A DNA stretch of 64,000 nucleotides. Origin: a virus. The DNA is taken from IMG/VR virus record IMGVR_UViG_3300022661_000003; one strand, written 5' to 3'. Below are positions 1 to 64,000 of this stretch, piece by piece (positions within the stretch are counted from its first letter, which is position 1; each line of letters starts with the position of its first letter). The notes beneath the pieces were generated by a model. It searched no databases, was not told where the DNA came from, and saw nothing but the letters and a program-made list of their open reading frames with translations. The position numbers and the translations under genes are program-made.

Positions 1-3000
1 TAGAATGCAGAGTAGTTAGTGTCGAAAAAAAAGAATTTGGCATTTACATGGTTGAATCTGATGAAGCTAAATTCGAAGCATATGCAACTGGCACTAATAC
101 TTATTATGCAAATGATATAGTTTATGTCACAATTCCAGGTGGAGATTTTAAACGACAAAAATTTATTATAGGTCGTAAAACTGATGAAAATGATGCAAGT
201 TCAGTTTATAATTTGAAATTTCCATTTGATGATTTTATTAAACTAACACAAATTGATTTAACTACTATTGAAGAAGCGAAAGCTTTAGCAGAATTAAATT
301 ATAATAATACTGTTGATAATATTAATAGTAAATCTCATATTATGGATTTTGGCTAGGCTCAAGAAGCATTAAAAAAAGCAGAAGAAGACTATAAGGCTTA
401 GCTAGAATATATTGATAAAACGTATGAAGTACAATCTCCTGTAGATACTGGTTTTTTGGCGAATTATAGTCAAGATAATAATATTCATATTTATGGAGTA
501 AATTTTGTACAACCTATTGTAGGAATGTCTAAACTTGGTATTGAATTAGAAGTATAGACATTGTTAGGAGATTTCCATCCTATTAATGGTTTATATGGAT
601 TATAGATTGATGTACATGGTATTATAGGTCCTACAGAAGAAGTGGAATCTTATGAACTTACTGAATCTTTTTTATTTTCTAATAAAGATATGTATGGTAA
701 TTCATATGCATATTATAATCCTTATATTCAGTAGAAAGTATTAGATATTTCTAATTTTAAAGAAGTTCATTCTGTAAATATTTTCTTTGTATAGGATTGC
801 ATGTTTTATGATGAAGAAGGTAAATTAATCCCTTATGAAAAAGATGAAATTGATGAAGTTACAGGAGAACATGAGAGAGGTTTCTTACCGAAAAATATTT
901 TCTTAACTAATTTTAAGGCTTATTTTGGTTTAGCTGGTTCAGAACTTAATGAAGAAAAATTATATCTTTATACTTATGATCCATTATGGTTTAATAAAGA
1001 TAGTGAAGGATATAATGAAAAAACTTTACGTTTTCAGTGGGTTCATATTAAAGACGATAAGAGCGGCACTATATTGTTTAGTAAACCAGAAGATATTGAT
1101 ACTTTTAATAATGCATTAAGAAAAGAAATTTTCGGTGAAAATAATGATCATCCAACTAATGAGCAATTAATTGCTTATGAGAATAGAAAATTATAGATTT
1201 GTTGGTATATTGAAGATTTAGATGAAATTGCTTCAGCGGATGAAATAGCTGAGAGTTTAGGTTCTTTATATGCTGGCAATAGATGGAAAGTAATTACTGA
1301 TAATAAGGCTGAAGCTTTAGATGAATATGGCAATCCAAAAGTTGGTTATTATTATGATAGTGGTTTCCCTAAAGGCTCTAATTCTTCAGTCTTTGAATAT
1401 AGTATTAATTTTAATAATTTTAATCGCGACGAAAAAAATCCCACGATTTATACATATGCAAGATGTAAATATAAAGTAGCAGTTATTTTTGGTACTAATA
1501 AATATTTTTCATCTGAATTAACTTTCAAAAATTTTGCATCTTTAAATGGAACGGTTGAAGAGGGGCATACTGAAAATGCCGATATTATTTTTAGATGTTT
1601 TTCTGGTAGACGCTCTGAAGATGGTAAATATACAATTGAATGGGACGATAATTCTTCTATTGGTCGTTTTTATGTTTATGACGAAAATGACAATATTTTA
1701 ATGGACAGTGATGGAAGACGTTTTTCTGACATTACTTATTATATGCAACTTTGGCATAGAGATCCAGATTATCCGCAGAATTATATTCCATTAATGTATG
1801 AAAAATATGATAATTCTGAAGATGCTGAAGATGGACATCAAATTACTAATATTAATTTTACTACAAAATGGTCTTTCTTTGATAATAGTACAATGTTGCG
1901 CAGTAGCAATACTCCTAATCTTACCGACGAAGAAGTTTAGGCTTTTGTTGAATTGCTCGGAATGCCAAATGTTGTAAAGAAAGAAGTTACCACTGAAAAC
2001 GGTACTGAATTAATAATAGATTTTGATGACCCAGATATTAAAGCTTTACGAGAAATTACTCGAAGTTTTACGATTGAAGATCATTTATATTCTTATAAAA
2101 AGAATAATGAAGTAGTAGCAATTGTAGACAAAAATCATCAAAAATATTATGCGCATAAAGATTTTCAGTTTGGTCGAGCAAATTCTCAAGGTACTGAATA
2201 TACAGCTACAATTGTTTTGAAAAAAGTCGGCAATATTGAAGGTGCTGATACACAATTAGTTTCTGGAAAAAGATTTAGCTTAGAATGTTAGATTTATGAC
2301 AAAGATCATAAATTAGCTAGATTTGACCATGAGATACAATACGATTGGCAATTATTGAATGAAGAACAATGTTATATTAAAGTCGATAATAATAATGCTG
2401 GAGCTATTTATTCAGGTACTTGGTATAATTTTAAAGAAGACAAAAAAACACCAAATGCGGCACCTGCTTTTAAAGTAACAATTAAGAAAGCAGGAGAGCA
2501 TGATATTTATGCAAAACGTGGTTTCTTGGCAGGACCTGAAAAACTTAATAATGTTCCATATGTCGCTATTATACCAGAGCGAGTAGAATATCGATCTGAC
2601 GGCAGTCATCCTTATTATTATAATAACTGGTTCACTGTTTATGAAGCAGGAACCAATAAACAATTATATACTGATTGGACTATCAATAAGGATTTAAGCA
2701 CTCCACATAGTTATATTACTCAAAAGGACGATAAATTAGTTGTAGTTCATACTGATATTATACCAGATGGAGCGATAATTCCAAAACATATTCCTGCAAA
2801 AACAGTTACTGAAAATAATGAAGAAGATACTGAAATTTCAGCAGAACATAATGATTATAAATTTGAAATGCAAGAATGGGGCAGTATTGGATTCTTGTGG
2901 GATAACCGTTTTGAAAATACAGTTTTATAGCTAGAAGGTAATTGTAAAGGATAGGTAATACGGCAAGCAATTGTCTTTGATTAGAATGTATATCCTTCAT

Positions 3001-6000
3001 CTCTTGTTAATACTTGGGATGGAGTTGCTCTTTCTGTTGATGAAGCTACTGGCTCTATTTTAGCAAATCGTATTGCGACAGGTACTAAAGATAATAGCGG
3101 TAGATTTACTGGTATTATGATGGGTGATTGGTCAGCATATGGTGATGAGTCTGTTGATATTGCTGGTATTTATGGTTTTGAAAATGGTCAAGAGACTTTT
3201 GGATTTTTGAAAGATGGTTCTGGATTTATTGGTGCTGCTGGCGCAGGTTAGATTCGATTTGATGGCCGAAATGCCATGATTGCCAGCGCATTAAAAAATG
3301 AATTTGGAACTCCCTCTTGTTATATTAATCTTAATCCTGCTAGAGTTGGTAATCCTAATTCTGTTTTAAATAGTGATAGTCAATATTTCTTATATTGTGA
3401 AACTGATAGAGCAAAAGATGCAGAAGTGGGATTAGATTAGTCTTGGGTTAATAAATTTTTTAAGAAAAAACGCAAAGTCGATGCTGATGGTAATTATATT
3501 ACAGATGAATTTGATCAGTATGTTTACGAAGAAAATGATAAAGATTATTTCATTGTTGACCCTACTCGTGGTGTATTAACTACTGGTGGTATTATTGCCA
3601 GATACGGTTATATTGGTGACTGGCTTATTGATAAAGGTGGTTTATCATGGTATTCAGAATAGGGCTTGACAAAAGAAAATTTTTATGATACAATATATTT
3701 TGGAAATTGGACTAGAAATCCTTATTGTATTATGTATCGTGAAGAATACGAAAAAGAAAAAGAAGATACTTATAAATCAATAAAAAATACTTATGATAAA
3801 AAACGAGAAGAATTAACTAAATAGTATGAAGAAGATTTAAAGAAAATTAAAATGACTGGTACAATTAAAGATGCTTAGGAGCTAGAAAAATAGTATAAAA
3901 AATCTTTAGATGAATTAAATACAGAAGAGAATAATGAGTAGAGTGCTGCATTAGAAGCTTTTACTAAAGAGAGTAAATATCAACAATATTTAATGTCTGC
4001 TGGACGATTAAATTAGAATCGATTTAATTATGCTAATAAAGGTGTAATGAATTTTGGTGTAACTGCAGATGGATATTTATTTAGCCAGTCTGGTCGCATC
4101 GGTGGTTGGATTATTGGTGCAGACACTTTAACTTCTGCTAAAACAAGTGAAATTGTTGATGATTAGGGAAATATTATATCTGTTCCTGCGGTTGAATTGA
4201 ATGGTGTTGAAGGAACCGCGACATTTGGAGTTATTAACTCTGCAGGTCAAATGCAAGGTCAAGTTAATTTGGCGGGCTATTAGATGATTGGATAGAGTGA
4301 TAATACTTCTTATGCTAATTTATTAAGTACTACCTCTATTAGAACCTTAGATAATAGCAAAGCAGATTCTTTTAACTTTAAAATGACGTTAATTAGTAAC
4401 GGTAATGTAGATGAAGATTAGTTTGTAATTTCTGAGAAATATGCTGTTACAGCCGTAGAATATTAGTATGGAGAAAGTGATAACGAAACTATTTCTCCTA
4501 CAGCTTGGGTTTAGGATTATATTGGAAACTCATTAAATAATATTGCAGTAAGAGGAAATCCTAAAAAATTCTTATGGGTGAAACAAATTTTTACGATATA
4601 GCCTATGGAAGGAAAATCTTTTCCGTTAGAAACTGATGCAATTTGTCTTGGAGAAAAAGTTAATGAAGAAATTTATTATAATGGGAAAGTAGAGCAATGT
4701 TATTTAAAATTAAAAGCTATTGAAATGTAGTATAATATTGTTGCAGAAAATGAATCGATTGATGTAAATTCTACTTCTTGGAAAACAATTGATGAACTTA
4801 AAAATAAAGATGAGAAAATTGCAATCACTAAAACAACACCAAAAATTATTACTAAATTAATTATATCATCTGTAGAGCATACTGTTGTCGATGAATCTAG
4901 TAAAGAACAATCTAAATTAGATTTTACTTATAATATTGGCATTACAAGTGCAACATTTGAATTATTTAATACTGATAATGCTTCTGGAAATATTGGCAAA
5001 ACAGAGGATATTGCAATAAAGGGTGACACTTCAACTTTATCAGGAGAGACAGGACAAACTTTTCAAATAGGACATTTTATGGCCAATAGTAAAGTAAAAT
5101 TTGAATAGTTACACACTTGGTCTCTTCTTGAAGAACAAAAAGGTTATTCATTAGGAATGTCCTTACAAACAGGAGAAGGAAATTCTTATATTGTTAAAAC
5201 TGATGAATCCACTGGCGACACTACGGAAGAATATAATACAACTAAATTTTATATTTTCCTTGCTCCAACAATGGCACGATTAGCGAATAGATTTGCTTCA
5301 CTTGGCACATATGCAAATCCATGGGATTATATATATGCTGGTACCTCAATATTTATTAATGGCGATGCAGCTGCAACTTAGCGATGGGCAGAAGATAATA
5401 TTAGATAGCCTTTGTGGAATAAAATTGTTGCAGTAAACAATTTGGCATCTACAGCTTATAAGAAAGCAAAAGACGCTGCGAGCAGAGCTCATTAGGCGGC
5501 AAACACTGCAAATGAAGCATTGAAATAGACTTTTGTTAGTGCTAAATTTAATATGACTGGCGGAGGATATGGAAAACAATTAGTATTAATTCGAAAAAAT
5601 GGAGCGACTTTAACCCTCGCTCCTGTCGCATCGCTTATACATAAACATACTCCCACTGTAACATGTTCTGAATCTAATGGCGAGATTACAATTAAAGTTT
5701 CTTTAAGCAATACTTCAATGAATGGTGAGGGCTCTGATTCTTTTAATATGGCCAGTACCGCTTTTTTCAGGAAACATGCATATGCTTCAGGAGGTAAACT
5801 TGATAAAGGCGGTCTCAATGGAGGATATACTGAAAGATATCGTAATATTACTGTTTCTGCGATACTGGCCGAAGATGGAACTACATTGGTTGAAAAATAG
5901 ACTTATGATTGCCCAGATTATGGTAATGGATATAATAAAGGTTATGAGACAGGCTACGAAGCAGGAAAAAAAGCTGGCTATAGTTTAGGGTATTCCGATG

Positions 6001-6026
6001 GACTCGCTGATGCTCGCGGAGCTTAA
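1..6026 (+). CDS. Giant virion/tail structural protein, 5' partial (>2000 aa), putative tape-measure-like; read through many in-frame TAG codons
   Basis: All track ORFs 48, 801, 1701, 1953, 2355, 5157, 5553 share frame 0 and end at TAG. Frame 0 is open from nt 3 and ends only at TAA TAA (6024-6026). An AGGAGA RBS plus ATG of the next gene follows at 6054. The protein has long coiled-coil-like Lys/Glu-rich stretches. Position upstream of Dit/Tal-like genes suggests a tape-measure protein. Confidence 0.6.
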
Positions 6027-6441: not shown

Positions 6442-9400
6442 ATGGCTCGTTTATATCCACCTAGCGTGGCGGGCACATTACCATCTTGTTATAATTATCC
6501 AGAGGGGATTGTCACTTTGACAATCCCCTTTTCTATGAATAAGACGGTAGCGGCACGCGCAATTAGTAGTTTTAGAGTAAGAATTAAAACAACTTCGACT
6601 GATAGAGTAATTGCTGATTGGCCTGAAAGTAGAGGTGCGGCAACACTTGATGATATTAATCCAGTATTAACAACTCAAATACCAACTGCATATATTCCTC
6701 AACTACGAGTCGGCAATTATTATAAAGTATAGATTGCTTATGTTGATAGTGAAGGAGTTATTGGGTATTATTCTTCTCTAAGTATTATTAAATATACAGG
6801 TAAACCAACAGTTCGTATTGCCGATTTATCTATTTCATATACTAATTTAGATATGACGGCGTATGTTGGTGAATATTTTAATCAAGAAGATCCAACTGAA
6901 ATTGTATATCAATATAAGTTTTTATTATATAATGATGCAGGAGCGATTATTGAAAATTCTGGTTGGCGTATTCATAATAGTTATGAAGATGAACAGGCTG
7001 GTCAATCACGAGATACTTATGTTCTCAAAACTGCTCTTGAATTAACTAAAACTTACAGAATTCAATATTGTATTATTACAAATAATAATTTAGAATTACA
7101 TTCACCTCGTTATATGATTTGCCAATCAGATTCAATTGAACCATAGCTTAAAGCTAAAATTTTTACAACGACTGATTATGATAATGGTTCAGTAACAATT
7201 ACTTTATTAGGTGATTTAATTGATGAGGACGGCAAAGAAGAAGTAGCAACAGGTACTTTCTTAATTTAGCGTTCATCTTCTTCTGATAATTTTACATCTT
7301 GGGTAGATGTATTAAATTTTAAATTAACAGGTGAATTCCCTTCAAATTTTGTCTTTCATGATTTTACTGTTGAGTAGGGAGAAACTTATCGATATTCATT
7401 ATAGCAATACAATGATTATGGTATTTATTCTCGCCGAATTTTAGCAGAAGATATTTATGTTGCTTTTGAAGATGCATTTTTATTTGACGGCAAACGGCAA
7501 TTAAGAATTCGTTATAATCCTAAAATTGCTTCTTTTAAAACTACATTATTAGATTCTAAAAAGAATACAATTGGCGGAAAATTTCCTACCTTTTTTAGAA
7601 ACGGTAATGTTGAATATAAAGAATTTTCTATTTCGGGTTTAGTTACTTATTTTATGGATAATGATGAATTCTTTTTTAAGAAAGATGAAATAGGATTTGG
7701 TGGCTGGGAAAATACTACCGATATTATTGACGCCAATATTTATCTTGAGCGACAATTTAAATTAGCAGTATTAGATTGGCTTAATAATGGAGAAGTAAAA
7801 CTTTTTAGGTCCCCGCAAGAAGGTAATTATATTGTTCGTTTAATGAATACGACTTTAGCTCCAAATGATTCTTTAAGTCGTATGCTTCATACTTTTACCT
7901 GCTAGGCTAGTGAAATTGCAGATTTTAATACAGAAAATCTGACTAAATATAATTTAATTCAAACTGTTCTTGAGCCTGTACCTGAAATGAGATGGCGTTC
8001 TATTAATCTTGCTTAGTGGTTAAATGAACGTATTACTCTTCTTTCAAAAGATCCTAATTATAAAGGTGTAGGTCGCAATGAATTAGTACAGTAGGCTCGT
8101 AGAGATATACGAAATGGCACTCATGATTTAGCAGAAGGTAAACCTATTTATTATATTAAAGTTGAAGATGTTCCGTCTGGCACTAAACTTTTATTGGGGC
8201 ATCAAGAAATTTTAATTGGCGCGACAGGTTATTATGAAGCTTTTTATGAAGAGCCAATGTATAATTTGCGAGTAAGTTCTATTAATGTAGATGAGTCAAA
8301 TGAATCGGCGGTTCCTGAATCTGTGTATGAGGGAATGAATGGTACTATTACATATGGTACTATGTCTACAGCCACTAATACTTTTGATACAGTTACTTCT
8401 GTAAAAGTAAGAGACGTTCCTTGCAGACAATTCTTTGGCCCGCAAGAAAATCTATTGGCAGAATGGAACGATATTCGCTTAGAAGTTTAGCGTGTTTATT
8501 ATGCTCGTTTCGTCGCACGGCATTTAGAAGAATTAGTATTACCTCTTGATACTACTATTGAAACTTTAAATGCAGTAATAGAATTATTTTCAAAACCTGA
8601 TGCAAAAAATAAAGTATATTATTATACTGAAGATATTATAACAACACCTACTCAAGAATATGATACAAATAAAGATCCAATTGTAGTTGAGCCACAGACT
8701 TTAAAAGTATATTATTTATATTATTATAATGGCCATTATTTGGTTCCTGTTGGGCCTGGATAGACTCAATTTACTGATGAATTTGGTAGCCGGATAGATG
8801 AAGAAGGTAATGTTATACAGACTTATGCGGGAAAAGATTTAATTTTGTTAACTTCTGCTCAAGCAAAATATGCAGAAAGATATGCGGAAGGTTTGTGGAA
8901 TTCTTTAACTCCATATTATGTATATTATACGAAAGAAGTTAATAAAGATAATTCTCCTGAAGGGAAAGAACCTAATTTATCTGACGGCTTAATTGATTGG
9001 AAATATACATATTATATGTTGGGTGAGACCGAAAATGGAACTAGTTTAATTCAATTAGAAAATTATGATACTACAGTAAAATATCATAAGTCTATAATTA
9101 ACGTTGCTGATATTGATGAATATTATATTCCAGATTTGGATTATGTTCCAGATGATATTAGTATTGGCAGTGGTGTATATGCCGAAATTGGTTTACAATA
9201 TCGAATGATTAGTTATTATTATGAACAATATCTTAGTGATCCTAAAGTTAATGACAGTAAATTGCAATGGTTAGAGGCAGAAGAAGCATATAGAACTGGT
9301 GTATTAAAAATGATTTAGGCTACTAATTAGACTGAACCATCTCGAAATACTGTTCTAGAAACCGTTAGTCCTTGTTATTATTTTGACACAGAAGAAGTTG

Positions 9401-9618
9401 ATTTAAGACTAATCGAAGATATAGACAGACCCGAATATAAGAATCGTTCTGTCCCAATTTATTATTATTCTTCTCAAGTTGGAGAAGCTCCTAATTATAG
9501 TATTATAGAACCCAATTATAATATTGCTGATTTAAAAGCAAGACGTGATGAAACTTATGCAATTTTTGTTGCAGAACTTGAAGCATATAAAGAACATGAG
9601 GAGGCTGACTTAGTATGA
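6442..9618 (+). CDS. Large tail structural protein (~1058 aa), putative extended distal-tail (Dit)-like protein; TAG recoded
   Basis: Track ORFs 6442, 6853, 7654, 8194, 8845 all lie in frame 1, separated by TAG only. The first non-TAG stop is TGA at ~9616, overlapping the ATG of the next gene (ATGA). The Dit call rests on position between the TMP-like and Tal-like genes and is weak. Confidence 0.5.
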
Positions 9619-52377: not shown

Positions 52378-52440
52378 AAGTCATCTCCCCTTTCTATATA
52401 TAAGAAAATAGGGGGAAGATGATGACCCTGAGTTGGCCTC

Positions 52441-53750: not shown

Positions 53751-53753
53751 TCG

Positions 53754-53997: not shown

Positions 53998-54498
53998 TCG
54001 CACCTCTACAACTCCTTCATCATATGGGAATAAGTAGAAGCAATGATAAACACCTTTGTCTTGCCAATTAGCCCAAATGGAGAAAGCACCATTAGTATCT
54101 TCTTCCATCATTTTTACTGGGCCAACACATTCAAATACGTCACACAAATCCCGCCAGAAGAATTCGTCATATTCAGAACCATCCCAGTCCAAATGGAATA
54201 AAGTATAATAATTATTCTGATTACAAAGTAACATAAAATAATTAGCATATCTATAACCATCGCCATCTTTTCCATTGAACCAATTCAAGAAATTTTCTTT
54301 CATTTGTTCTAGAGGCATATCGGGCATCTGCGCGACCATCATCTAATTAAGTTCATACAAAGATACTTCTACTTTTGGAGCTTCTTCACCTTCCGGCACT
54401 TCAAATGCTTTTTCCATGTTTCCTCGCTCTTTTAGTAGCTCCAGTAAATTTTCGTACTCTTCGGGCTCAACATAGTAAGCGCCATTTTCTTCTCTCAT
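53995..54498 (-). CDS. Hypothetical acidic protein (~167 aa, one TAG)
   Basis: Track ORF 53995..54342 is extended upstream through TAG to ATG ~54498, preceded by an AAAAAGGAG RBS. Confidence 0.45.
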
Positions 54499-54533
54499 AA
54501 AGAATACTCCTTTTTCTCATTTTCTACATTATA

Positions 54534-55022
54534 TCATAATTTTTTTTCTCTGTCAAATTTGTGGATGCGCTGATTAGAACTTCCACGAAGATATAATGTG
54601 ACATCTCTTAACTCTTCTTCATATCGACCATCAATAAGATAATCAATATTCTTCAAGATATAATCCATATGCGGATTACACATATCTTGTAATTCTTCTA
54701 AAGTATAACCACTCCAAATGTAAATTGGAGTATTTGGAGATTTTTCTGCTACTGTTTTTACCAAAAGAGTAGTAAGAAATAAATTCTCCTGACAAAGAGG
54801 TTCCCCGCCCAAGATACATAATGATCTATCAATATCTTGGGCGTGAAGCTTAACAATTAATTCATCTAGCAAAGTGGAGGGAAACTCCTTGCCTCCTTTA
54901 AAGTCCCAAGTTCCTGGATTATGACATCCAGGGCATCTATGAGGACATCCTTGTGTGTAGAATGATACGCATAAGCCATCACCGGCGGCAATATCATTCC
55001 ATAATACATCAGCATATCTCAT
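54534..55022 (-). CDS. nrdG: Anaerobic ribonucleotide reductase activating protein NrdG (radical SAM)
   Basis: Intact 162-aa ORF. Carries FYTQGCPHRCPGCHNP, the NrdG Cys cluster. Immediately downstream of nrdD. Confidence 0.85.
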   Translation of the reverse strand: MRYADVLWNDIAAGDGLCVSFYTQGCPHRCPGCHNPGTWDFKGGKEFPSTLLDELIVKLHAQDIDRSLCILGGEPLCQENLFLTTLLVKTVAEKSPNTPIYIWSGYTLEELQDMCNPHMDYILKNIDYLIDGRYEEELRDVTLYLRGSSNQRIHKFDREKKL

Positions 55023-55053
55023 GTTTCTTTCTCCTTTAAAGAAGGCTAATTTC

Positions 55054-57264
55054 TTAATAACGTGAATGCTTTACTCTTTCTCTTGTTTCTGCTCTCTTGC
55101 CTTCATTGAATTTACGGTAATCAGTAGTCAAATATCCAGTAACACGACGCAACTGTTCAATATTGGTACTGCCGCACTCAGGGCAAGCATTATTAAATTC
55201 TGCAGTATATCCACATTCTAAGCAAGTATCAATTGGGAAATTGAAAGCAAGATATGGGATATCAAGTGTATCAAAAGCATATTCAATAATCTGCTTAATT
55301 GCTTTTGTATTCTTTACAAAAGTAGAATCAAGTTCAACATATGTAATACATCCACCAGTGGGATATTTACAGAAAGGTGCTTCGATTTCGAGTTTCTCGA
55401 AGATGCCAACTTCTTCCCAAACAGGAACATGATGGCTATTAGTAAGATATTCTCTATCAGTAATATTCTTAATTACTCCATGCTGTTTTCTAAGGGCTTT
55501 TAGAGCAGTAGAGCATAAGCCTTCAGCAGGAGTCGCATAGCAAGAGAAGTTCAAATCATTTCTCTCACTTGCTTCTTTAGCGAACTCATTGATTCGCTGA
55601 ACGACAGAAAGAGCGAAAGCGTGTGCCTTCTTATTTCTGGCATGATTTTCACCAAATAGTGCCTGACACATTTCGGCAATACCGATGTAACCAATAGCCA
55701 GTGTATTATGTCTTAAAGATTGATATACACTATCTTTACACTTTTGGCCTTCTAGGATAGTGCCGTTTTGATACATAAAGGGCGCTGCGATTGCGGTTTG
55801 ATTTACCATTACGTCAAAACGTTCAAGAAGTGCCTGTTCGGCAAGCTTCAATAATTCTTCAAAGTCAGCCCAGAAACCTTCCAAATCAGCTTCGTCACGT
55901 TCACCAAGACAAATGCCGTGTTTAATGCCAAGCTGGGGAAGAATCATAGTGACAGGAACATTGTTTCCTCTGCCGACCCTCTTGTAACCGTAGCCGTGCC
56001 GATCAAATCCTAGCATTGTGCGGCATCCCATTGTGCTGAAATAAGTATCAGGGTCATTTTCATCTTCATGAGCTTGAGACCAATCGCAATTACAGAAATT
56101 AGGATAAATACGCTTGCTCAAAGATTCAACTGCCAATTCACTTAAATCATAATTGGGGTCATTTAGTTTTGCATTACATCCCTTTTTGTATTGGAAAATA
56201 CTGATTGGGAAGATAGAAGTTCTGTGGTGCTTACCGATTCCTGCGAGTGAAGCGTTGAGCATAGCTCGTGAAACCATTCTTCCTTCAGGGGAGGTATCTC
56301 GTCCGAAGTTAATAGAGGTAAACGGGACCTGAGACCCGGCACGGGATTCTAAAGTATTAAGATTGTGGTAAAGTGCTTCTGCACTTTGCTTCATCTCCTT
56401 CTCAAGCATATCCATAGCATAGCGATAAATATTGCGCTCGCCAAAATTATCTTTTGGATAATCTTCAATGGACATATCAGGAGCACCCTGGAATACATCT
56501 ACATCATCAGGGATAGAAACCTGACCGATATATTTCACGCCATCTTGCCAATGCTTGTAAAAACTCATTTTTACAAAAGGAGCAAGGTCATAGTCAATAT
56601 GAACGGTGCCAACGCCACCAAACTGAACCTAAGACTGACACTGGAAAATTACTGCCATTTGCTGACAAGCAGTAGAGAAACTCGTCGGTGGGCGAATGTC
56701 ACCATTACGAGTGGCAAAACCTTCTTCGAAGATTTTTCCAAAGTCAATATTCAAACAGTTATGTTCTCCAATAGGAGCTTTTTCAAGGTCATGCTGATAA
56801 ATCCACATATTACGATGCGCATCAGATACTTCTTTACTGAGAATATCTTCAAGAGCATAAACTTTTTGAATATCAGCAGATGCTTCTTTTTCACGACCAG
56901 AGAAACTACGTTCATCGACATTGGCATTAGCATTTTGAACTGAAACAGCGTTCAGCCTACGACGCATTGCTTCAATGATTTTACTTTTCTTTTCTCTTGC
57001 TTTAGTTCTCTAGTCTCTATATAAAATATACGCCTTAGCGACGTCAGGTTCGACTTTCATTAATTCTTTTTCTACAAGGTCTTGAATGCCTTCTACTGTC
57101 ATATCCTTGTCGAGAGCCTGAATTTTTAATGCAATATCGGCGGCGACAGGGTGAATACCACTGTCTTCAGTATAATTGCCCTGATAGAATGCTCTTGTAA
57201 TAGCAACTTCAATTTTGTTTAGGTCAAATGGGACTTTACGACCATCACGTTTAGTAACTTGCAT
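55054..57264 (-). CDS. nrdD: Anaerobic (class III) ribonucleotide reductase NrdD (~736 aa) with 2 in-frame TAG
   Basis: Track ORFs 55054..56568, 56629..56967 and 57010..57264 are all in the same frame, joined by TAG. N-terminal ATP-cone (MQVTKRDGRKVPFDLNKIEVAI). C-terminal glycyl-radical region and Cys-x2-Cys zinc ribbon (CLECGY...CPECGS). GGAGGT RBS. Confidence 0.85.
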
Positions 57265-57307
57265 GTATTTTACCTCCGATAATAAAAAGTGGATAATCCA
57301 TAATATT

Positions 57308-57958
57308 TCAATTTACTGGCTTATGTTCTATCGAAAGTCGCCCACGTGCTACTAGATGTTCGATATCATCCTCAATGGCCCACACAACATCTTGTTTATC
57401 GGATTCTTTTTCATTCCGATATTTACACATATTGCGATGTAAGATAAAGTCTCGGATTATCTCTTCATTAAAATCTTCTTCGTCGGCGAAATACCGACGG
57501 CAGATTTCAGATACATTAGGTTTATTTTCTCTATTAAGCTAACGAAGCATACGCTCTTTATCAGAACAGGCAATATAATAACCGTAAACAATAACATCTT
57601 CAAGAGGAGAACTAGTCAGACAATCAAATCCTTCTGGATTAAATACTCCAATATTGACACCCTCTTTAAGACTTGATTCCATTGTACCGTAATGCCATTC
57701 ATTGAAATAAGTTGCCTCAAGCATATCGCCATTTAAAACTTTTTCGGCAAACTATTCATTCGTTAAAAAGTAATAACTTTCACCTTCTACTTCATTATTT
57801 CGCATTGGGCGAGTGGTACAAGATACAATCATATTCCAATTTGGATTTCTGCGGGCAAGGTCGCGGGCAATTGTATCCTTACCCGCGCCAGCCTTTCCAA
57901 TTAACGCGATAATTACCTTCATATTATTCCTCACTAGCTTCTCCTTTAGCACGCTCAA
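57308..57958 (-). CDS. Deoxynucleoside-monophosphate kinase-like P-loop protein (~215 aa, 2 in-frame TAG)
   Basis: Track ORFs 57539..57724 and 57752..57958 share a frame and continue through TAGs to TGA ~57308. Walker A GKAGAGKDT. The real start is probably the internal ATG (MKVIIALIG...) immediately after the dnaE stop. Confidence 0.55.
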
Positions 57959-60900
57959 ACTGAAGATTCAATGTTCCTCTTGGGCCAACACCATTGATTT
58001 TATACAACTGATGACCTGCGGTTGAAGCGTACTTTTTCGGCACAAATTCATCTCCACGACGAATACCTGTTACCATAATCATACTACCTCTATTGAACCA
58101 AGATTTTTCAACTACGTGCTTAACTCCATCTTCTCCTCGTTCAGAAATCTGTTTATCAAACATACTGAAATATTCATTTCTAAACTTAACGGTTACTACA
58201 CCACTAGGAGTTAGAAGAGAAACTGTGCCTTTCGTTTTATTTTTAGCGATACAAGTTCCGCAAATACGATTAAGTCTATAAATCGGAATATCTACTCCGC
58301 CACGTCGGAATGTTTTTTCCACGATTGGCTCTTCAGGAAGCTCAAAGAAATCACTAATACCATACTTTTTAGTATCAATATCTTTCAATTCGTGTTCATG
58401 GCTATAGAAACACAATACTTCCATTTCCCAAGCGGAATAATTTGCATCGCCAGCATATTTTTTCCATTCTTCGGAGAAAATCATTTTATTCATGGCATAC
58501 AATGCTTCTTCTTGATTATCTTTCATCCAAGTTCGCACCGCATCCATTTCTTGCTTATAGACTTTCTCCCACATTTTCTTATTTAGAGCATAAGTGTTAT
58601 TATATACTTCCAAAGGAAGATTATAATGACTGTCAACAAATGCTAATGCTCTTTCATCGAGAATATAATAATCTCCATCAGATTTCAAAGCATTTTTCAG
58701 ATAACGAGTAAATTCATATACCGCTCTCTGATGACTCAAATGCTTCGGCAATAAATCTCTCTGAATAAGACCATTCATATTCTGAAGTGTGATACGTTGT
58801 TTCTTATCGCAAGTCATCCAAAGATATTCTGCCATAATATCTTTTCTCTCGCCAAATGAATCAAATGCTCCACCCTTGATAAGAGATACAACTGCTTGCT
58901 TGCCACATTTTACGCGTCCAAGAAAGTCTCCAAAACTGCTGAAGGGTCGAGACTCAATAATAGATTGTACCACATCGTCGCCGACGTTGAGTAGTCCTTT
59001 GAGTCCGAAAATAATCCGTCCGGTCGCCGCGTCGGGGCGGAAGCCAAAGCTAGATAGGTTGATATCTGCTGGAGTGACTTCGATTCCGGCAGATTTAATG
59101 TCTCCAATTGCTTTTGCAATTTTTCCATAATCAGTAGTTCCTTTCAATTCTGGGTCAACTGCGCCACTATTTACAATCAAACAGGCAGTATTCCAATAAA
59201 TTGGATTGAATTTAGATGCTAATAACAAAGTCTGCATTCCTACAAAAGAATATGGAAGTGAATGGTTCATACTAAAAGCATAGCCTAACTGCGGCGCCAC
59301 GGCGACCTTCCATACATAATCCGCACAAATGAATGGCATTGCTTCATATACTTTTCTCTTGAGTTCTGGAATACGAGACATCTGTTTTTTCGCAACAATC
59401 TTACGAGCATCATTTGCTTCTGCCAATGTAAAATGTGCGATACGTTCATCCATGAGAATTTCCATCATTTGCTCTTGAATTGCGCAACAACCATAATATG
59501 TATCACAATATTGATGCATTGCTTCAATCATCGGCTCAGGAAGTTTTGATTTTTCCATTTCTCTCTGGAAAGTCTCAAGACCATTCGTTTTAATTCTCAT
59601 ATATCTATCTTGCTGAGACTCTTGACCTCTCTCTGTCATAAGTCTCATCATAGCATTCGCCGCAGTCATTTCCAACGGATTACTCGGCTGAAGTCTTTTT
59701 GCTATCGCAAGACCAACACCACTATTGAACTGGAATACATCCAATACAGAACCTTCGGCAAGTTTCTGCCAAATTACTGGATCTTTTGTATCCATTATCT
59801 CAGGATGTAAATAAGTGTTATATGCTTGTCTTAAACTCATGGGTAAGATTACTTTATCTTCCATCATAAGATTCAGACAAATAATTTCCTTATCAGAAAT
59901 TTCAGTTACAAGGAAGTCATACTTCGTATCTCCAGCGGCTTCAGCCATATGAAGGTCATAACAAGTAATTAAATCTCCAGAAGGAGTTCTCATAATTGCC
60001 GCGGTATCAAAAATATTTTCATCATACATAATGACACCAGAAGCATGACATCCACGTTGTTTTACTACACCTTCAAGAGTAAAGATAATATCCAACAAAC
60101 CAGGATATTTATTTACTTCTCGAATGAATGCCGTTACAGGTCTTCGACCTTTCTCTTCACTACCATATACTACTTCATTCATAGACCACAAGAAACCACG
60201 TTCCTGAGGAATGAGAGAAGACATATACTGAGCAGCGTCAACATCAATACCGTCTTTATATTCTTCCTCTTCACCTGTTGGGCCTCTATATCCACGACAA
60301 GCTGTAAGAATAGCAGATTTTGTACCTTCAGTACCAAAAGTCGCAACCTGAATTAAACCAAGCTCTCCACGCTCTTCTCTAATCTTTTCAAAAATCAAAG
60401 GTCGCTTAGAAGGAGCCAAGTCAATATCAATATCAGGCAACTCAGCACGTTCTTTATTTAGAAAACGCCACCACGGCAAATTCCATTTTATAGGATCCAA
60501 CTGAGTAATACCAAGCAAATAATTGGAGAGGAAACCAGTAGCAGAACCGCGGCCAGGACCGACAATACTACCGCAATCCCAAAACAGATCAATATAATGC
60601 TTAAAGGTATTGAAATAAGCAAATAGACAAGTCCCAAGACGATCTCCAATATATCGGATAACGTCTGCTTCAATTTCAAGTCTTTCAATATATTCATCTT
60701 TGACTAATTTCTTATTAAACAGTTCTTTTAAACAACAATCTAACCAATATCGTTCTTGGTCAGTTCCTTGTTTATTAATGTAATCTAAAGTGGGATAATC
60801 TGTTTCAAAATCCCAACCTGTAATTGTAATCGTATGCTTTGGCACTTCAACAACTGGAATTTGTTGAGGTCTTTCTAAAGAATACCATTCAATTTTTTGA

Positions 60901-61775
60901 CGCATATCTTCAGATGCTCTTAAAACTGAATCAATATCTTTAGGCTCAAAAGAATAAGACAATAATTCTCTTACTTCATTTTCATCCATTAAACGAGCAA
61001 ATTCATAGAAGCTATCAATTTCTCGTTCTCCGCCTTTTGAGTTCAAATATGCTTTATGAGCAAAACGAGTTTCTTTACTCAAATAATGAGAGTCTGTGGC
61101 AGGCAAAATTTTGAGTTGAAAATGTATTGCTGTATCCATCAAATACTTATTGATTATAATTTGATCTTCAGTAGTTGATGGAGCACATTCAATATAAAAA
61201 TCATCTTGTCCAAATACTCCAACACAGAAATTGATAAAATTCCAAGCTTCTTGTAAATAAACTTGAGCTTCATCATAATTCTGAGATTCTTTCGCTACAT
61301 GATAAGCAGTTAACTTTTTAGAAAGTTCTCCACCCATACATGCTGTAGTTCCCATTACATGACCTTTATATTTACTCATAATATTCGCCAATTCTGTTTT
61401 TAGAAGTGGCACTCTTTCCATACCTCTATCAAAGTATGAATTATACCATGCAATAGAACTCAACTCACGAAGTGCTTTATGACCGATTGCATCTTTTGCA
61501 ACAAGAATAAAGTGATAATAAGGCTGACCCTTATCTCTGGTATCAGTTAAATAAATTTCATTCCCAAAAGCGATCGTAAAATCAGGATGCTTTTCACGAA
61601 TTTTCTTCGCATACATATTAATTTCCATATGACCGCTCAACGCTTCGTGGTCTGTAATAGCTACGCCAGAAAGACCTAGTTCAATCGCTTTATCAACTAG
61701 GTCTTTCGGTTTTATAATACAGTCGAGAAGTCGTAGATTGCTATAATGAGTGTGATTATGACAATTAAAAAACAT
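57924..61775 (-). CDS. dnaE: DNA polymerase III alpha subunit (DnaE-type, PHP domain N-terminus), 1283 aa, completely TAG-free
   Basis: Intact track ORF. The N-terminus HNHTHYSNLRLLDCIIKPKDLVDKAIELGLSGVAITDHEALSG is a PHP domain. Length and motifs are typical of PolIII alpha. Ends at TAA. Confidence 0.85.
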   Translation of the reverse strand: MFFNCHNHTHYSNLRLLDCIIKPKDLVDKAIELGLSGVAITDHEALSGHMEINMYAKKIREKHPDFTIAFGNEIYLTDTRDKGQPYYHFILVAKDAIGHKALRELSSIAWYNSYFDRGMERVPLLKTELANIMSKYKGHVMGTTACMGGELSKKLTAYHVAKESQNYDEAQVYLQEAWNFINFCVGVFGQDDFYIECAPSTTEDQIIINKYLMDTAIHFQLKILPATDSHYLSKETRFAHKAYLNSKGGEREIDSFYEFARLMDENEVRELLSYSFEPKDIDSVLRASEDMRQKIEWYSLERPQQIPVVEVPKHTITITGWDFETDYPTLDYINKQGTDQERYWLDCCLKELFNKKLVKDEYIERLEIEADVIRYIGDRLGTCLFAYFNTFKHYIDLFWDCGSIVGPGRGSATGFLSNYLLGITQLDPIKWNLPWWRFLNKERAELPDIDIDLAPSKRPLIFEKIREERGELGLIQVATFGTEGTKSAILTACRGYRGPTGEEEEYKDGIDVDAAQYMSSLIPQERGFLWSMNEVVYGSEEKGRRPVTAFIREVNKYPGLLDIIFTLEGVVKQRGCHASGVIMYDENIFDTAAIMRTPSGDLITCYDLHMAEAAGDTKYDFLVTEISDKEIICLNLMMEDKVILPMSLRQAYNTYLHPEIMDTKDPVIWQKLAEGSVLDVFQFNSGVGLAIAKRLQPSNPLEMTAANAMMRLMTERGQESQQDRYMRIKTNGLETFQREMEKSKLPEPMIEAMHQYCDTYYGCCAIQEQMMEILMDERIAHFTLAEANDARKIVAKKQMSRIPELKRKVYEAMPFICADYVWKVAVAPQLGYAFSMNHSLPYSFVGMQTLLLASKFNPIYWNTACLIVNSGAVDPELKGTTDYGKIAKAIGDIKSAGIEVTPADINLSSFGFRPDAATGRIIFGLKGLLNVGDDVVQSIIESRPFSSFGDFLGRVKCGKQAVVSLIKGGAFDSFGERKDIMAEYLWMTCDKKQRITLQNMNGLIQRDLLPKHLSHQRAVYEFTRYLKNALKSDGDYYILDERALAFVDSHYNLPLEVYNNTYALNKKMWEKVYKQEMDAVRTWMKDNQEEALYAMNKMIFSEEWKKYAGDANYSAWEMEVLCFYSHEHELKDIDTKKYGISDFFELPEEPIVEKTFRRGGVDIPIYRLNRICGTCIAKNKTKGTVSLLTPSGVVTVKFRNEYFSMFDKQISERGEDGVKHVVEKSWFNRGSMIMVTGIRRGDEFVPKKYASTAGHQLYKINGVGPRGTLNLQFERAKGEASEE

Positions 61776-61814
61776 CTACTCGTTCCTCTCTTTACATTTC
61801 CTGTATATATTATA

Positions 61815-62627
61815 TCATAAATTTTTAACTTTTTCAAGTTCAAGCGCCGTTTTTATAGCCAAACATTTTTCAATAAGGGCAGGCAATTTATCTAAAGGTA
61901 ATGCTTGCGCTTTATCACAGCAAGCTCCATATGGAGTATTTTGAGTTTCAATCATTAATCCATCTGCACCCACAGCAACGGCAGCCAAAGCAAGAGGTTC
62001 TACATGAGGAGTATAGCCGGCGGCATGTGATGGATCAACAATTACTGGAATCATATTTGCCTCTTGATGAATTTTAGGAATTGCCGCAAGATCAAGAGTA
62101 AATCGTGAAGAATCTGAGAAAGTACGAATACCACGCTCACAACCATATACCATTGCTTTTGGCATATAATTACGAGCAGCGATAAATTCTTCAACAGTAT
62201 TGCCAAATCCTCGTTTGAGAAGGATAAGATTATCACTTTCATTTAATGTGCGCAATAAGCTAAAATTTTGCATATTACGTGAACCAATTTGAAATATTAC
62301 TTCCACTTTTTCCTCTTCACAACGCTCTTTCACATAATGATATTGCTCTTCATCCATAACTTCTACGCAAATACCACTAATAATATTATCATCTGTAGAA
62401 CAGTTATTTACACAGTTTTGATATTCTCTTAACATTTTTTCAAAGCCTAATTTTCCTGCTCCTTGATAAGAGAATGTGCTTGTGCGAGGTTTCCAACAGC
62501 CGCCTCTTAACCAAAATTCTTCATGAGGAAATCGATTTGCAACTTTTTGGATTTCTTCAGTCACATATTTTATATCATTAAAACCTGGGTCTCGTGAAAT
62601 TGCACAAGGGCCAAGAATAAAAATCAT
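61815..62627 (-). CDS. DAHP synthase / KDO8P synthase family (class I-beta) aldolase, 270 aa, TAG-free
   Basis: Intact track ORF. Carries ILGPCAIS... and VIVDPSHAAG motifs of the KdsA/AroG-like family. Confidence 0.65.
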   Translation of the reverse strand: MIFILGPCAISRDPGFNDIKYVTEEIQKVANRFPHEEFWLRGGCWKPRTSTFSYQGAGKLGFEKMLREYQNCVNNCSTDDNIISGICVEVMDEEQYHYVKERCEEEKVEVIFQIGSRNMQNFSLLRTLNESDNLILLKRGFGNTVEEFIAARNYMPKAMVYGCERGIRTFSDSSRFTLDLAAIPKIHQEANMIPVIVDPSHAAGYTPHVEPLALAAVAVGADGLMIETQNTPYGACCDKAQALPLDKLPALIEKCLAIKTALELEKVKNL

Positions 62628-63262
62628 TGTAATGTTGCCTTTCCTGGATTTTCTACTAAAATGTTAAATAATGGACGATATTTTAATGGTACCCAATCAT
62701 AAGAAGAACAAATAAAAATTAAATCATAATGATCATTAGTGTTCAAATCTTTTAAATCAGTTAATGTAATATATTCATGATTCTTAGGAAGCTCATGATA
62801 TAACTACATTTCAGAATTTTTATTACGGACCCATATATATTTATTTACCTAATAGTATTTAGTTAAATAATAAAGCCAATTAGTACAGTCATAAGGTCGT
62901 TCTTTAAATTCTTCTATGTCATTGTGATGATATCCTCGATCATGATGATGATCAATATTTATAATCTCTAAAGAGCCACCAATTTCATGATGAACTTTTT
63001 TTATTGCTGGAACAATTTCATTATGATTTTGACCTATTAGTATATAAGATTTAGGATTATGCTTACAAACTTCCCTTAAGAAAAAATATAAATTAGCATA
63101 TTTTTCATAATCCATTTCAAGGTTACAATTATATTTTAATGCAGGAATTTCTGTTTCTATTATTTTCCAAGTCTCATCAGGTCCAGATTTACTTACGCGA
63201 CTATACTAATTATACGCCTAAATAAAAGGCTCCATAACCCAATCAAAATCTATACTTAATAC
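62624..63262 (-). CDS. Hypothetical protein (~212 aa, 4 TAG) with possible DHH-like phosphoesterase motifs (IDFD, DHHHD)
   Basis: Track ORF 62849..63115 is extended both ways through TAGs. ATGA overlaps occur at both ends (helicase stop, kdsA-like start). Confidence 0.4.
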
Positions 63263-63264
63263 TT

Positions 63265-64000
63265 TCATGGTCGATAATTCCTCACAATAATTAATTTCTT
63301 AGAGGCTCGTGTCGCAGCGGTATATAACCAACGCATATGGTCTTCCTTACTTTCGCCTCTTAAAAATTCTTCCAAGACAATAACTTTATCATACTCACTA
63401 CCTTGTGCTTTATGACAAGTAATAGCATATCCATAATCAAACTGTTTAGGATGATACCATTTAGGGATATTTTTAAAAGTCAATTTATTTACAGTTGCTT
63501 CATTTTCTGTAAAGATTTTATAATCTGCTTCTAATTCAGGGAATGCTCCAGCACCTTCAAAATCAGGTTGAAAAGTAATGATAGGAGTTTTTCTCATAAA
63601 TGGATTTTCATCGGTCCAGTCCAATTCAGTAATTGTTCCACTTAATCCATTTACTAAAGCATCATTAGTATCATTAATACATTCCCATTCGTTATGAAGG
63701 CAAATAACTCGATCGCCAACTACAGGTTCCATATCGTCAATTCCAAGTAAAGTTTGACGAAGATTGGCATTAATAGCACGACGAGTATTATTTTTTCCAA
63801 CCAAAATTTGATCGGCCCAAGCCAAAAAACCATCTTGAAATAATTCATCTCTATCGACAATCCGCACTTCATTACCAGAAAATTTTTCTAAAGCCTTTCC
63901 GGCACGAATATCCATAGTGAGACGAATAATTTCACTTTCTTCCTCTTGTCTCATAATTTCATCTAAGAAAATATGAGGTTTATCCAATACTTCATGTTGT
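63265..64000 (-). CDS. SF1 (Dda/RecD-like) helicase, 3' portion; gene continues beyond the window end
   Basis: The C-terminal YAITCHKAQGSEYDKVIVLEEF and TAATRASKKL motifs are helicase motifs V/VI. The ORF is open to the window edge. Confidence 0.7.
   Translation of the reverse strand, partial: QHEVLDKPHIFLDEIMRQEEESEIIRLTMDIRAGKALEKFSGNEVRIVDRDELFQDGFLAWADQILVGKNNTRRAINANLRQTLLGIDDMEPVVGDRVICLHNEWECINDTNDALVNGLSGTITELDWTDENPFMRKTPIITFQPDFEGAGAFPELEADYKIFTENEATVNKLTFKNIPKWYHPKQFDYGYAITCHKAQGSEYDKVIVLEEFLRGESKEDHMRWLYTAATRASKKLIIVRNYRP

Follow-up and report, generated by a model that had tools for sequence, protein, structure and literature searches.

A 64-kb segment of a tailed phage genome in genetic code 15, with a gene-specific TAG load consistent with translational timing

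When the genes of a phage are interrupted on both strands by TAG, is that codon read as an amino acid, and if so, why do some genes carry many TAGs and others none? We addressed these questions in a 64,000-nucleotide stretch of viral DNA with a low GC content of 34% (hereafter the window; IMG/VR record IMGVR_UViG_3300022661_000003). Our preferred reading, to which we assign a probability of about 0.85, is that the window is part of a tailed phage genome of ~168.6 kb that uses genetic code 15, that UAG is decoded by a tRNA(CUA), and that recoding acts as a translational timer. The source phage is present as 168,640-168,658-bp contigs in ENA and JGI and was recovered from dozens of metagenome samples.

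Gene content with TAG as a sense codon

An earlier note on this DNA, made from the sequence alone, proposed that TAG had been reassigned throughout, citing same-frame fragments separated by TAG, gene ends at TAA or TGA, and coupled overlaps or ribosome-binding sites between genes. All of these features were borne out. With TAG read as sense, ORFs of at least 300 aa rose from 12 (6,368 aa) to 18 (15,209 aa), the longest spanning 2,331 codons. The note had suggested re-predicting the genes under code 15 with codes 4 and 25 as controls, and the gain was specific to TAG; reassignment of TGA was ruled out, as reading it as sense gave 12 such ORFs (6,413 aa), no gain. The resulting set comprises 51 tightly packed genes with 20,651 codons and a coding density of 97%. 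In-frame TAGs (n=175) occur in 40 of the 51 genes, and the genes end in TAA (38) or TGA (13) and never in TAG. Neighboring genes overlap by four bases in six cases and by one base in five, and a Shine-Dalgarno motif precedes 35 of the 51 starts, compared to a background of 7%. As expected for code 15, the in-frame TAGs lie in intact, conserved genes whose coding density is restored when TAG is sense, and TAA and TGA are the sole terminators, with none in frame.

The genes do look fragmented in the JGI calls, which follow the standard code, and this appearance is all that speaks for pseudogenization of a degraded element or for an assembly or sequencing artefact, readings to which we attach practically no credence. 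Frequent in-frame TAA or TGA had been named in advance as a sign of pseudogenization; among the codons aligned in relatives, only 6 of 144,421 were TAA or TGA, which excludes it. In the window the genes are interrupted by TAG alone, never by TAA or TGA, and TAG sites are kept as CAA, CAG, or TAG in relatives. The same proteins are found on 168.6-kb contigs from independent assemblies in 36-46 sample blocks. These data refute the artefact and pseudogene explanations. The main practical point concerns annotation: ENA gene calls on this phage are full length, whereas the JGI calls are shredded at TAGs, and under the standard code only 30% of residues can be reached from predicted starts before the first TAG.

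The genes fall into two modules, a late module on the + strand (159 in-frame TAGs in 16,746 codons) and a replication module on the - strand (16 in 3,905 codons). Domain matches in the late module were to Phage_tail_C, Gp10_C (three), GT2, radical SAM (two), and PG_binding_1 with Peptidase_C39_2.

1-64000, unstranded: phage genome segment in genetic code 15 (TAG = Gln; TAA, TGA = stop), from ORF and codon statistics
48-51836, + strand: late module of 39 ORFs with tail, baseplate, and fibre genes, a modification cassette, and a lysis cassette
48-6026, + strand: 1,992-aa tail-region protein, 3' of the gene for a 3,795-aa protein
9615-12101, + strand: 828-aa structural protein; 15 TAG, 18 CAA, and 0 CAG by codon counts
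22408-29403, + strand: 2,331-aa protein with 11 TAG and a TAG-free stretch of 839 codons at 24604-27120
33954-36162, + strand: three paralogous baseplate/fibre proteins with Gp10_C domains (Pfam matches)
39555-40604, + strand: family-2 glycosyltransferase (GT2), 4 TAG
42507-45253, + strand: two radical-SAM enzymes (Pfam matches), one of 458 aa with 6 TAG and one of 456 aa with 5 TAG
47112-48044, + strand: endolysin (PG_binding_1 + Peptidase_C39_2) with a single TAG at 48012-48014, codon 301 of 310
48057-48826, + strand: two small membrane proteins, candidate holins from a hydropathy scan
51886-63987, - strand: replication and nucleotide-metabolism module of 12 ORFs
52441-52974, - strand: RuvC-like resolvase, 5 TAG (28 per 1000 codons), the densest on this strand
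52946-53530, - strand: dUTPase, 0 TAG
54534-55022, - strand: NrdG activase, 0 TAG
55054-57264, - strand: NrdD anaerobic ribonucleotide reductase, 2 TAG vs 30 CAA/CAG
57308-57958, - strand: guanylate kinase, 2 TAG, both sites mostly CAA/CAG in relatives
57924-61775, - strand: DNA polymerase III alpha (DnaE; SPbeta YorL-like), 1,283 aa, 0 TAG among 42 Gln codons
61815-62627, - strand: DAHP_synth_1 family (KdsA-like) protein, 0 TAG
62624-63268, - strand: 214-aa protein, 4 TAG vs 2 CAA/CAG
63265-64000, - strand: C-terminal part of a superfamily-1 helicase (UvrD_C_2) that starts at ~64,209, past the window end; TAG is absent from the part in the window

Assignment of TAG to glutamine and the suppressor tRNA

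Several independent lines of evidence support the reassignment of TAG to glutamine. The earlier note had placed one TAG of RuvC, in the motif xDEADAICIGY, at a position typically occupied by Gln and had proposed aligning RuvC, the radical-SAM proteins, and NrdD to homologues. In each of the three, some of the TAGs align to Q. Four of the five RuvC sites are Gln-majority, with Q in 110, 71, 119, and 113 of 120 homologues, the last being the motif site; by comparison, none of the 159 non-Gln columns of the same alignment has a Q majority. A PDB sequence search with the window RuvC gave no match. In a radical-SAM gene, 110 of 150 representatives have Q at TAG390, and Q is the commonest residue at TAG282 (31 of 73 non-gap residues), while none of the 447 non-Gln columns reaches 30% Q. 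TAG85 of NrdD is aligned to Q in PDB 8p23. Two of the three Gp10_C paralogues have a TAG within the motif N-[MV]-x-P, and in the paralogue at 35081-35593 the TAG of NNVxPY lies opposite the Q of NIQPY in T4 gp10, in an alignment that is below threshold on its own. Finally, across 42 relatives the TAG sites of the window are occupied by CAA (27%), CAG (6%), or TAG (7%), a distribution that resembles that of the window's CAA sites.

Could TAG instead specify Lys, Glu, or Ser? Several TAG sites align mostly to K or E, and Ser is among the candidates because the tRNA(CUA) found in this clade has a long variable arm, as in class II tRNAs. Specifically, the suppressor tRNA of a relative measures 91 nt, has a long extra arm, and, in global alignment, scores best against the tRNA-Leu(UAG) of the same array. 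However, in an empirical-profile likelihood analysis of 28 TAG sites against relatives, Gln was the best residue, exceeding Lys by 66.6 log units, Glu by 126, and Ser by 203 (bootstrap 980/1000). The best-conserved TAG columns are almost pure Q. Gln is usually replaced by K, E, or R, and the window's CAA sites show these replacements as well. Moreover, the relative's suppressor has G73, G2-C71, G3-C70, and an unpaired 1-72 position. By the textbook identity rules of E. coli these features would point to Gln rather than to Leu or Tyr, both of which require A73. Gln was also the assignment made for phage phAss-1 by its authors (PMC10607447) and was confirmed by metaproteomics in other code-15 phages (PMC9523058). 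Collectively, these data make a different amino acid very improbable.

The relative in question, IMGVR_UViG_3300024270_001991 (168,738 bp), encodes a DnaE 75% identical to that of the window. Its tRNA(CUA) (L064:7506-7596) lies within an array of 31 tRNAs about 46 kb upstream of dnaE, in a TAG-poor region and co-oriented with early genes. A tRNA(CUA) is also present in phAss-1, and that of the relative is homologous, including the extra arm, to phAss-1 sup1. Neither the window nor its flanks (13.7 kb on the right and 3.9 kb on the left, about 17.6 kb of the phage's own sequence) yielded a tRNA; none was found around dnaE in any relative examined, and Rfam scans of the window and flanks gave no match. 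A pattern built from the two homologous suppressors matched 7 contigs in IMG/VR, none from this phage; an exact 48-mer scan of IMG/VR for this phage returned two short fragments only, its GyrA C-terminal fragment matched only itself, and a metagenome scan for its tRNA region identified only a 29% relative. Followed rightward through close relatives, the genome led to the tRNA array in the 75% relative alone. By analogy to the relative, UAG is probably decoded by a phage-encoded tRNA(CUA), which probably resides in a large tRNA array ~44 kb past the right end of the window. No code-change module with a release factor or an aminoacyl-tRNA synthetase was seen in the parts of the genome examined.

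Uneven TAG load among genes: composition, import, or timing

The earlier note had described TAG usage as strongly bimodal. The heterogeneity is real: given their content of Gln codons, the genes differ in TAG use (chi2 131, df 50, p=4e-9). The division into two classes did not hold, as 11 TAG-free genes were observed and 8.0 expected (P=0.14). TAG load is a gradient, highest in the tail genes, low in nrdD, and zero in dnaE, and dnaE is the sole TAG-free gene that is individually significant, with none among its Gln codons (20 CAG, 22 CAA; P=6e-6). The high TAG counts that the note gave were confirmed. The 1,992-aa protein is the most TAG-loaded (34 TAG vs 40 CAA/CAG), with 12 per 300 codons in its C-terminal half (aa 1190-1489), and the counts for the radical-SAM genes and RuvC are as listed above. 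Its list of TAG-free genes was correct for dnaE, nrdG, dut, and the kdsA-like gene and wrong for three others: the endolysin has its one TAG, the fibre-like gene at 46175-46966 has a TAG at codon 17, and the "812-aa CotH-like core" is the 839-codon TAG-free stretch of the 2,331-codon ORF. This ORF matched phrog_14959; when the giant tail proteins were compared with Pfam and PHROG, no CotH domain and almost no annotation resulted. The TAG-free genes are mostly small or Gln-poor, and their zero counts are not significant. A 5' bias of TAG within genes was rejected, since the positions are uniform along genes (KS p=0.31).

One explanation for this gradient is that TAG does encode Gln but that its distribution reflects mutation pressure and evolutionary rate, without a regulatory role. 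Under code 15 a C->T change that turns CAG into TAG is synonymous, and such changes would accumulate in AT-rich, fast-evolving tail genes while GC-richer, slowly evolving enzymes keep CAG. Consistent with this idea, the TAG share is lower in genes of higher GC (rho -0.54, p=3e-4) and in those with a higher CAG share (rho -0.57, p=0.002), making a component of compositional drift likely. TAG-rich genes have almost no CAG, and the number of TAG-free genes, the even placement of TAG within genes, and the nearly unaffected lysis genes fit as well. So does RecJ, with 11 TAGs in this phage, 0 in its closest relatives, and 0 to 14 among relatives, indicating that part of the pattern is lineage noise. 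By contrast, dnaE lacks TAG despite its 20 CAG and 22 CAA codons, and among the 42 relatives it has 0-2 TAGs, with zero in 36, at protein identities (59-75%) for which synonymous sites are presumably saturated. RuvC, with an intermediate GC content (0.37), carries 2-8 TAGs, at partly different sites, in 17 of the 18 relatives in which it aligned. Furthermore, TAG accounts for 30-55% of the Gln codons in AT-rich genes, whereas G-ending codons account for only 6-14% of Lys and Glu codons, indicating that TAG does not merely follow G at third positions. We consider a wholly neutral origin possible but rather unlikely.

The note had also raised the possibility that TAG-free genes are modules newly imported from standard-code genomes that have yet to acquire TAG. 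GC content tends to be higher in TAG-poor genes than in their neighbors (0.37-0.45 vs 0.26-0.33), and the fibre-like genes at 29643-30992 and 40597-41277 were not traced in relatives; fibre genes are commonly exchanged between phages, which we counted in favor of import. The core genes argue otherwise: the synteny of dnaE, nrdD, nrdG, dut, and the helicase extends to the 42 relatives (59-75% identity), where these genes again have few or no TAGs, and recent import is not supported for them. Similarly, the 410-aa tail gene at 17784-19016 lacks TAG both here and in a 73% relative, and most TAG-free genes hold so few Gln codons that a count of zero is expected by chance. That dnaE is TAG-poor and RuvC TAG-rich across relatives favors selection over recent import, which we judge quite improbable as a general account. 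The relatives at these identities provide a natural series in which the gene-by-gene spread of TAG can be followed.

A temporal switch, the remaining possibility named in the note, would match the published model in which recoding regulates late and lytic genes (Borges et al., bioRxiv 10.1101/2021.08.26.457843) and fits the window data. Genes with few or no TAGs (polymerase, gyrase, helicases, NrdD/G) would be translated by the unmodified host upon DNA entry, and TAG-loaded genes (tail, the radical-SAM/GT2 cassette, RuvC, RecJ) would yield full-length products only after enough suppressor tRNA has accumulated; recoding would thereby time translation in the way that model proposes. In support of this reading, the late strand has 9.5 TAGs per 1000 codons vs 4.1 on the replication strand, and dnaE and RuvC keep their contrasting loads across the clade. 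A close relative encodes gyrase A/B, ligase, and a Band_7 protein, all early genes, with no TAG, and the tRNA(CUA) of the 75% relative lies, as noted, in a TAG-poor region co-oriented with early genes. As the model describes, structural genes are recoded and replication genes are compatible with the standard code, the exceptions being RuvC, RecJ, guanylate kinase, and the 214-aa protein. The lysis genes, however, are not preferentially recoded and are almost unaffected by TAG. The single endolysin TAG lies so close to the 3' end that translation under the standard code gives a virtually full-size protein (a 300-aa product in the JGI call), and the one or two TAGs in each candidate holin (codons 102 and 112; codon 52) are all 3' of the hydrophobic segments. 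Against our overall reading we counted the number of TAG-free genes, the GC and CAG correlations, the uniform placement of TAG, the lysis genes, RecJ, and the lack of a tRNA in the window and the flanks examined.

Relation to known recoded phages and the nuclease genes

The best match among GenBank phages is phAss-1, whose DnaE is 39% identical and which is listed by NCBI in its "Caudoviricetes code 15 clade". phAss-1 reads TAG as Gln, has 3 tRNA-Sup, and is linked to a proposed group, Phassvirus (Babkin et al. 2023, PMC10607447; GenBank OQ749652). Like the phage studied here, it uses TAG in part of its genes (41 of 147 ORFs), has a genome that is large and siphovirus-like and encodes a giant protein of the tape-measure type (3,149 aa vs 3,795 aa here), and places a late + strand module before a - strand module with PolIII-alpha, NrdD, and NrdG. 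It also shares large tRNA arrays that include tRNA(CUA) with this clade, in which they were seen in the 75% relative. In contrast, our phage's genome is larger (168.6 kb vs 136 kb), and no tRNA adjoins its nrdD, where phAss-1 has two Sup tRNAs. Membership in Phassvirus is proposed for phages with ~80% or more nucleotide identity to phAss-1, BK046881, or BK025033 together with synteny; gene order here is only broadly similar, the similarity falls short of that definition, and a 12-kb megablast query matched no GenBank phage. Judged by sequence comparison, this phage is a lineage of genus level or higher that is distinct from phAss-1.

Several features recall the recoded gut phage clades of Borges et al.: low GC, TAG mainly in structural genes, replication genes that can mostly be read in the standard code, and a suppressor tRNA in a TAG-poor region (seen here in the relative). 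A recoded homing-type nuclease (GIY-YIG-like, 7 TAG) in the early region parallels the recoded intron endonuclease of those clades. Unlike those clades, this phage has shown no release factor or aminoacyl-tRNA synthetase of a code-change module in the parts examined, and the preferential recoding of lysis genes in published crAss-like and Agate cases differs from the almost unaffected endolysin and candidate holins here. crAss-like code-15 phages have been validated by metaproteomics (Peters et al., PMC9523058). The lineage seems closer to SPbeta-like and Enterococcus phages than to the named gemstone or crAss clades: it shares a replication module, with a YorL-type PolIII-alpha (37-38% identity), YorF, YorH, AAA_24, and DnaB, with SPbeta-like and large Enterococcus phages, which are annotated with full-length genes in the standard code, in contrast to the 40 TAG-bearing genes of the window. 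The phage is a genuine but ordinary further case of the documented TAG->Gln recoding in gut-type phages. It adds a common 168-kb lineage, distant from phAss-1, to the known code-15 phages and leaves the current understanding of recoding unchanged.

A more speculative idea concerns the enzymes that cut DNA. TAG occurs in the RuvC of 17 of the 18 relatives in which it aligned and, in some lineages only, in RecJ and the GIY-YIG nuclease. It is conceivable, though doubtful, that this clade loads such enzymes with TAG, in an otherwise standard-code early operon, as a safety catch that operates with an unusual long-arm, Gln-like suppressor; if so, UAG suppression would hold the nucleases back until replication is under way. 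From its sequence, the suppressor used in decoding may be unusual in combining a Gln-like acceptor stem with a class II-type long variable arm, a combination that would be conserved between the suppressors of this clade and of phAss-1.

TAG as a sense codon and the residue it encodes

The earlier note had proposed that TAG is a sense codon throughout the window and that genes always end in TAA or TGA, and both claims held. When only TAA and TGA were treated as stops, the ORFs of at least 300 aa rose from 12 (6,368 aa) to 18 (15,209 aa), the longest with TAG as sense reaching 2,331 codons. Unlike TAG, TGA read as sense, a control suggested by the note, gained nothing in the ORF statistics of the window. 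Since TAA and TGA make up ~6% of codons in off-frame reading, a chance origin of a 2,000-codon stretch lacking both would be impossible. We built a non-overlapping set of 51 genes that covers 97% of the window (34% GC), 39 on the plus strand and 12 on the minus strand:

48-51836, plus strand: tail, baseplate and fibre proteins; GT2; two radical-SAM (rSAM) genes; endolysin; small membrane proteins
51886-63987, minus strand: RuvC, dUTPase, NrdG, NrdD, guanylate kinase, PolIII-alpha, DAHP_synth_1 protein, helicase

An SD motif precedes 35 of the 51 starts (background, 7%), and neighbouring genes show 11 overlaps of four or one base. The genes end in TAA (38) or TGA (13), and 40 of them contain a total of 175 in-frame TAG (8.5 per 1000 codons), which amounts to 25% of all putative Gln codons. 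Translation from the predicted starts would cover only 29.7% of residues before meeting a TAG. In-frame TAA or TGA, the sign of decay against which the note had warned, occurred at just 6 of 144,421 aligned codons in relatives. The use of TAG as a sense codon is thus real.

Tabulating the residues aligned to TAG favoured Gln, as the note had claimed. Four of the five TAG in RuvC align with Q in 110, 71, 119 and 113 of 120 database homologues; the fifth is N in 58 and Q in 26. The site from which the note had argued, xDEADAICIGY, is the one with Q in 113 homologues. Q was the majority in 0 of 159 columns opposite non-Gln query residues, and the pattern persisted among homologues below 45% identity. 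A late radical-SAM gene has six TAG and was compared with 150 cluster representatives: 110 of them have Q at TAG390, Q is the most frequent residue at TAG282, and TAG443 is E in 81 and Q in 24; none of the 447 other columns has at least 30% Q. NrdD TAG85 lies opposite Q in PDB 8p23, and TAG213 falls at a variable position. In a Gp10_C paralogue (Pfam domain match 4e-15), the TAG of NNVxPY lies opposite the Q of T4 gp10 NIQPY, in an alignment that alone is sub-threshold. Among 42 relatives from IMG/VR (DnaE identity 36-75%; several 160-200 kb long), window TAG sites are occupied by CAA (27%), CAG (6%), TAG (7%), K (22%) and E (10%), the same profile as at window CAA sites. Finally, a likelihood test, for which substitution profiles were derived empirically from these alignments with subject TAG codons left out, placed Gln best, 66.6 log units above Lys and in 980 of 1000 bootstraps (28 sites). 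Collectively, these alignments argue that the TAG-to-Gln assignment is right.

Spread of TAG among genes

The note had described TAG use as strongly bimodal. TAG is indeed heterogeneous among genes, both per codon (chi2 113, p=8e-7) and given Gln-codon counts (chi2 131, df 50, p=4e-9; Monte Carlo p<5e-5). The implied excess of TAG-free genes did not materialise: 11 were observed and 8.0 expected (P=0.14, not unusual), and in most of the genes that the note had named as TAG-free, Gln codons number just 2-9. Instead of a distinct "TAG-free subset" there is a gradient, in which dnaE is the sole TAG-free gene that is individually significant.

Genes that avoid or accumulate TAG (TAG of Gln-type codons; each individually significant, P<0.05)
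Avoider: dnaE, 0/42 (P=6e-6)
Avoider: nrdD, 2/32
Avoider: coiled-coil protein, 1/24
Avoider: 263-aa protein, 1/20
Avoider: 2,331-aa protein, 11/73
Accumulator: 1,992-aa protein, 34/74
Accumulator: 828-aa protein, 15/33
Accumulator: one rSAM gene, 6/11
Accumulator: 188-aa protein, 4/6
Accumulator: 214-aa protein, 4/6

Some genes had been listed as TAG-free in error. A TAG is present at codon 301 of 310 in the endolysin and at codon 17 in one fibre-like gene, and the CotH-like core is a TAG-free stretch inside an 11-TAG gene, with no CotH match in that stretch. Across window genes, the TAG share of Gln codons correlates negatively with gene GC (rho -0.54) and with CAG share (rho -0.57). CAG is nearly absent from TAG-rich genes, as if it had been replaced by TAG through C-to-T change. 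Placement of TAG along genes is even.

Comparison with relatives settles part of the question of selection versus drift. Of the 42 relatives, 36 have a dnaE without any TAG and six have one with 1-2, and RuvC has 2-8 TAG in 17 of the 18 relatives where it was aligned, at partly different sites. A close relative, whose GyrA matches at 91% identity over a 477-residue C-terminal fragment, lacks TAG in GyrA, GyrB, ligase, a Band_7 protein and others; 4 TAG are present in its GIY-YIG nuclease and 6 in a 290-aa protein. On the right flank of the window phage, RecJ has 11 TAG and a GIY-YIG-like gene 7 (L002:5471-7276 and L007:3516-4472), with none in DnaB (as called), a 368-aa protein or the C-terminal part of GyrA. 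RecJ ranges from 0 TAG in the closest relatives to 14 in another lineage. We read the replisome genes as probably under selection against TAG, and late proteins and some nucleases as apparently tolerating or favouring it, with a drift component that is also substantial. Recent import of TAG-free modules, which the note had offered as an alternative, is unlikely because the core TAG-free genes occupy syntenic positions throughout the clade, where their TAG status is maintained. Within the largely TAG-poor replication strand, the DNA-cutting enzymes RecJ, GIY-YIG-like and RuvC (5 TAG; 52441-52974) are TAG-rich.

In the model of Borges and colleagues, recoded stops delay late genes and early genes remain compatible with the standard code (bioRxiv 10.1101/2021.08.26.457843). 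A temporal switch of this kind would be a plausible reading of the TAG distribution. The window phage differs from the model, however, in that its lysis genes are hardly recoded. The sole TAG of the endolysin (47112-48044) lies 9 codons ahead of the TAA stop, so that the standard code would yield a 300-aa form and suppression of UAG a 310-aa form.

Relatives and a candidate suppressor tRNA

The window DnaE and a small tail-region protein have identical sequences on circularly permuted contigs of 168,640-168,658 bp, which come from assemblies in ENA, JGI and Logan (36-46 sample blocks); gene calls on these contigs are full length in ENA and broken at every TAG in JGI. No GenBank phage matched the window at the nucleotide level. 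At the protein level, the best match is to phAss-1 (OQ749652; DnaE identity 39%), filed at NCBI under "Caudoviricetes code 15 clade" and published as a TAG-to-Gln phage with three tRNA-Sup(CTA) genes (PMC10607447). SPbeta-like and Enterococcus phages follow (37-38%), and the replication module resembles SPbeta-like phages in its YorF-, YorH- and YorL-type genes. TAG-to-Gln recoding is already well documented: metaproteomics has confirmed it in other lineages of phages (PMC9523058), block-wise dual coding is on record (Mgcod preprint 10.1101/2022.06.29.495998), and both the timer model and a related phage group (PMC10607447) have been described. The window phage is therefore new as a fairly distant addition.

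The search for a tRNA(CUA) proposed in the note failed in the window and its flanks and succeeded in a relative. ARAGORN and Rfam found no tRNA in the window, 13.7 kb rightward or 3.9 kb leftward, nor within 10 kb either side of dnaE in all 42 relatives. Stepping rightward through relatives, we found a 31-tRNA array in IMGVR_UViG_3300024270_001991 (168,738-bp contig; DnaE 75% identical), part of which is L064:

L064:7506-7596, co-oriented with early genes: tRNA, anticodon CUA, ~46 kb upstream of dnaE

The larger ORFs surrounding it are TAG-free. By synteny, the tRNA(CUA) of the window phage should lie ~44 kb past the window's right end. At 91 nt, the relative's tRNA carries a long, class II-like variable arm, G73, G2-C71, G3-C70 and an unpaired position 1-72; these acceptor features look Gln-like. 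It is homologous to sup1 of phAss-1 (62,442-62,532), with the extra arm conserved in both. In a full-text literature search, no paper on suppressor tRNAs of phages and code 15 also mentioned a "variable arm". The parts examined showed neither a release factor, for which the note had also suggested a search, nor a tRNA synthetase. Just downstream of the array, relatives encode three unusual proteins (L060:209-2659, 6467-6916, 7119-8570): one of 816 aa that has a major-vault-protein shoulder domain, one with a YqeY (GatB-like) domain, and an RNA ligase. YqeY domains associate with tRNA in other systems.

Neighbouring genes

At 41627-45253, two radical-SAM enzymes lie directly 3' of two small ORFs with a very high content of Ser, Tyr and Asn in their C-terminal parts (e.g. 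YNSYNSGKLSTNYSGYNSS), adjoined by the GT2 gene and fibre-like genes. The arrangement resembles a cassette for modifying peptides or proteins, set within the tail-fibre region. Adjoining the tRNA array, the 75% relative has an S-adenosylmethionine synthetase (L064:14414-15646), which would suit radical-SAM enzymes. The replication module includes a DAHP_synth_1 (KdsA-like) gene at 61815-62627. To the left of the window (L009:1-3765), its first gene is preceded by one for a presumed tape measure of 3,795 aa, with 21 TAG in the 1,255 codons seen.
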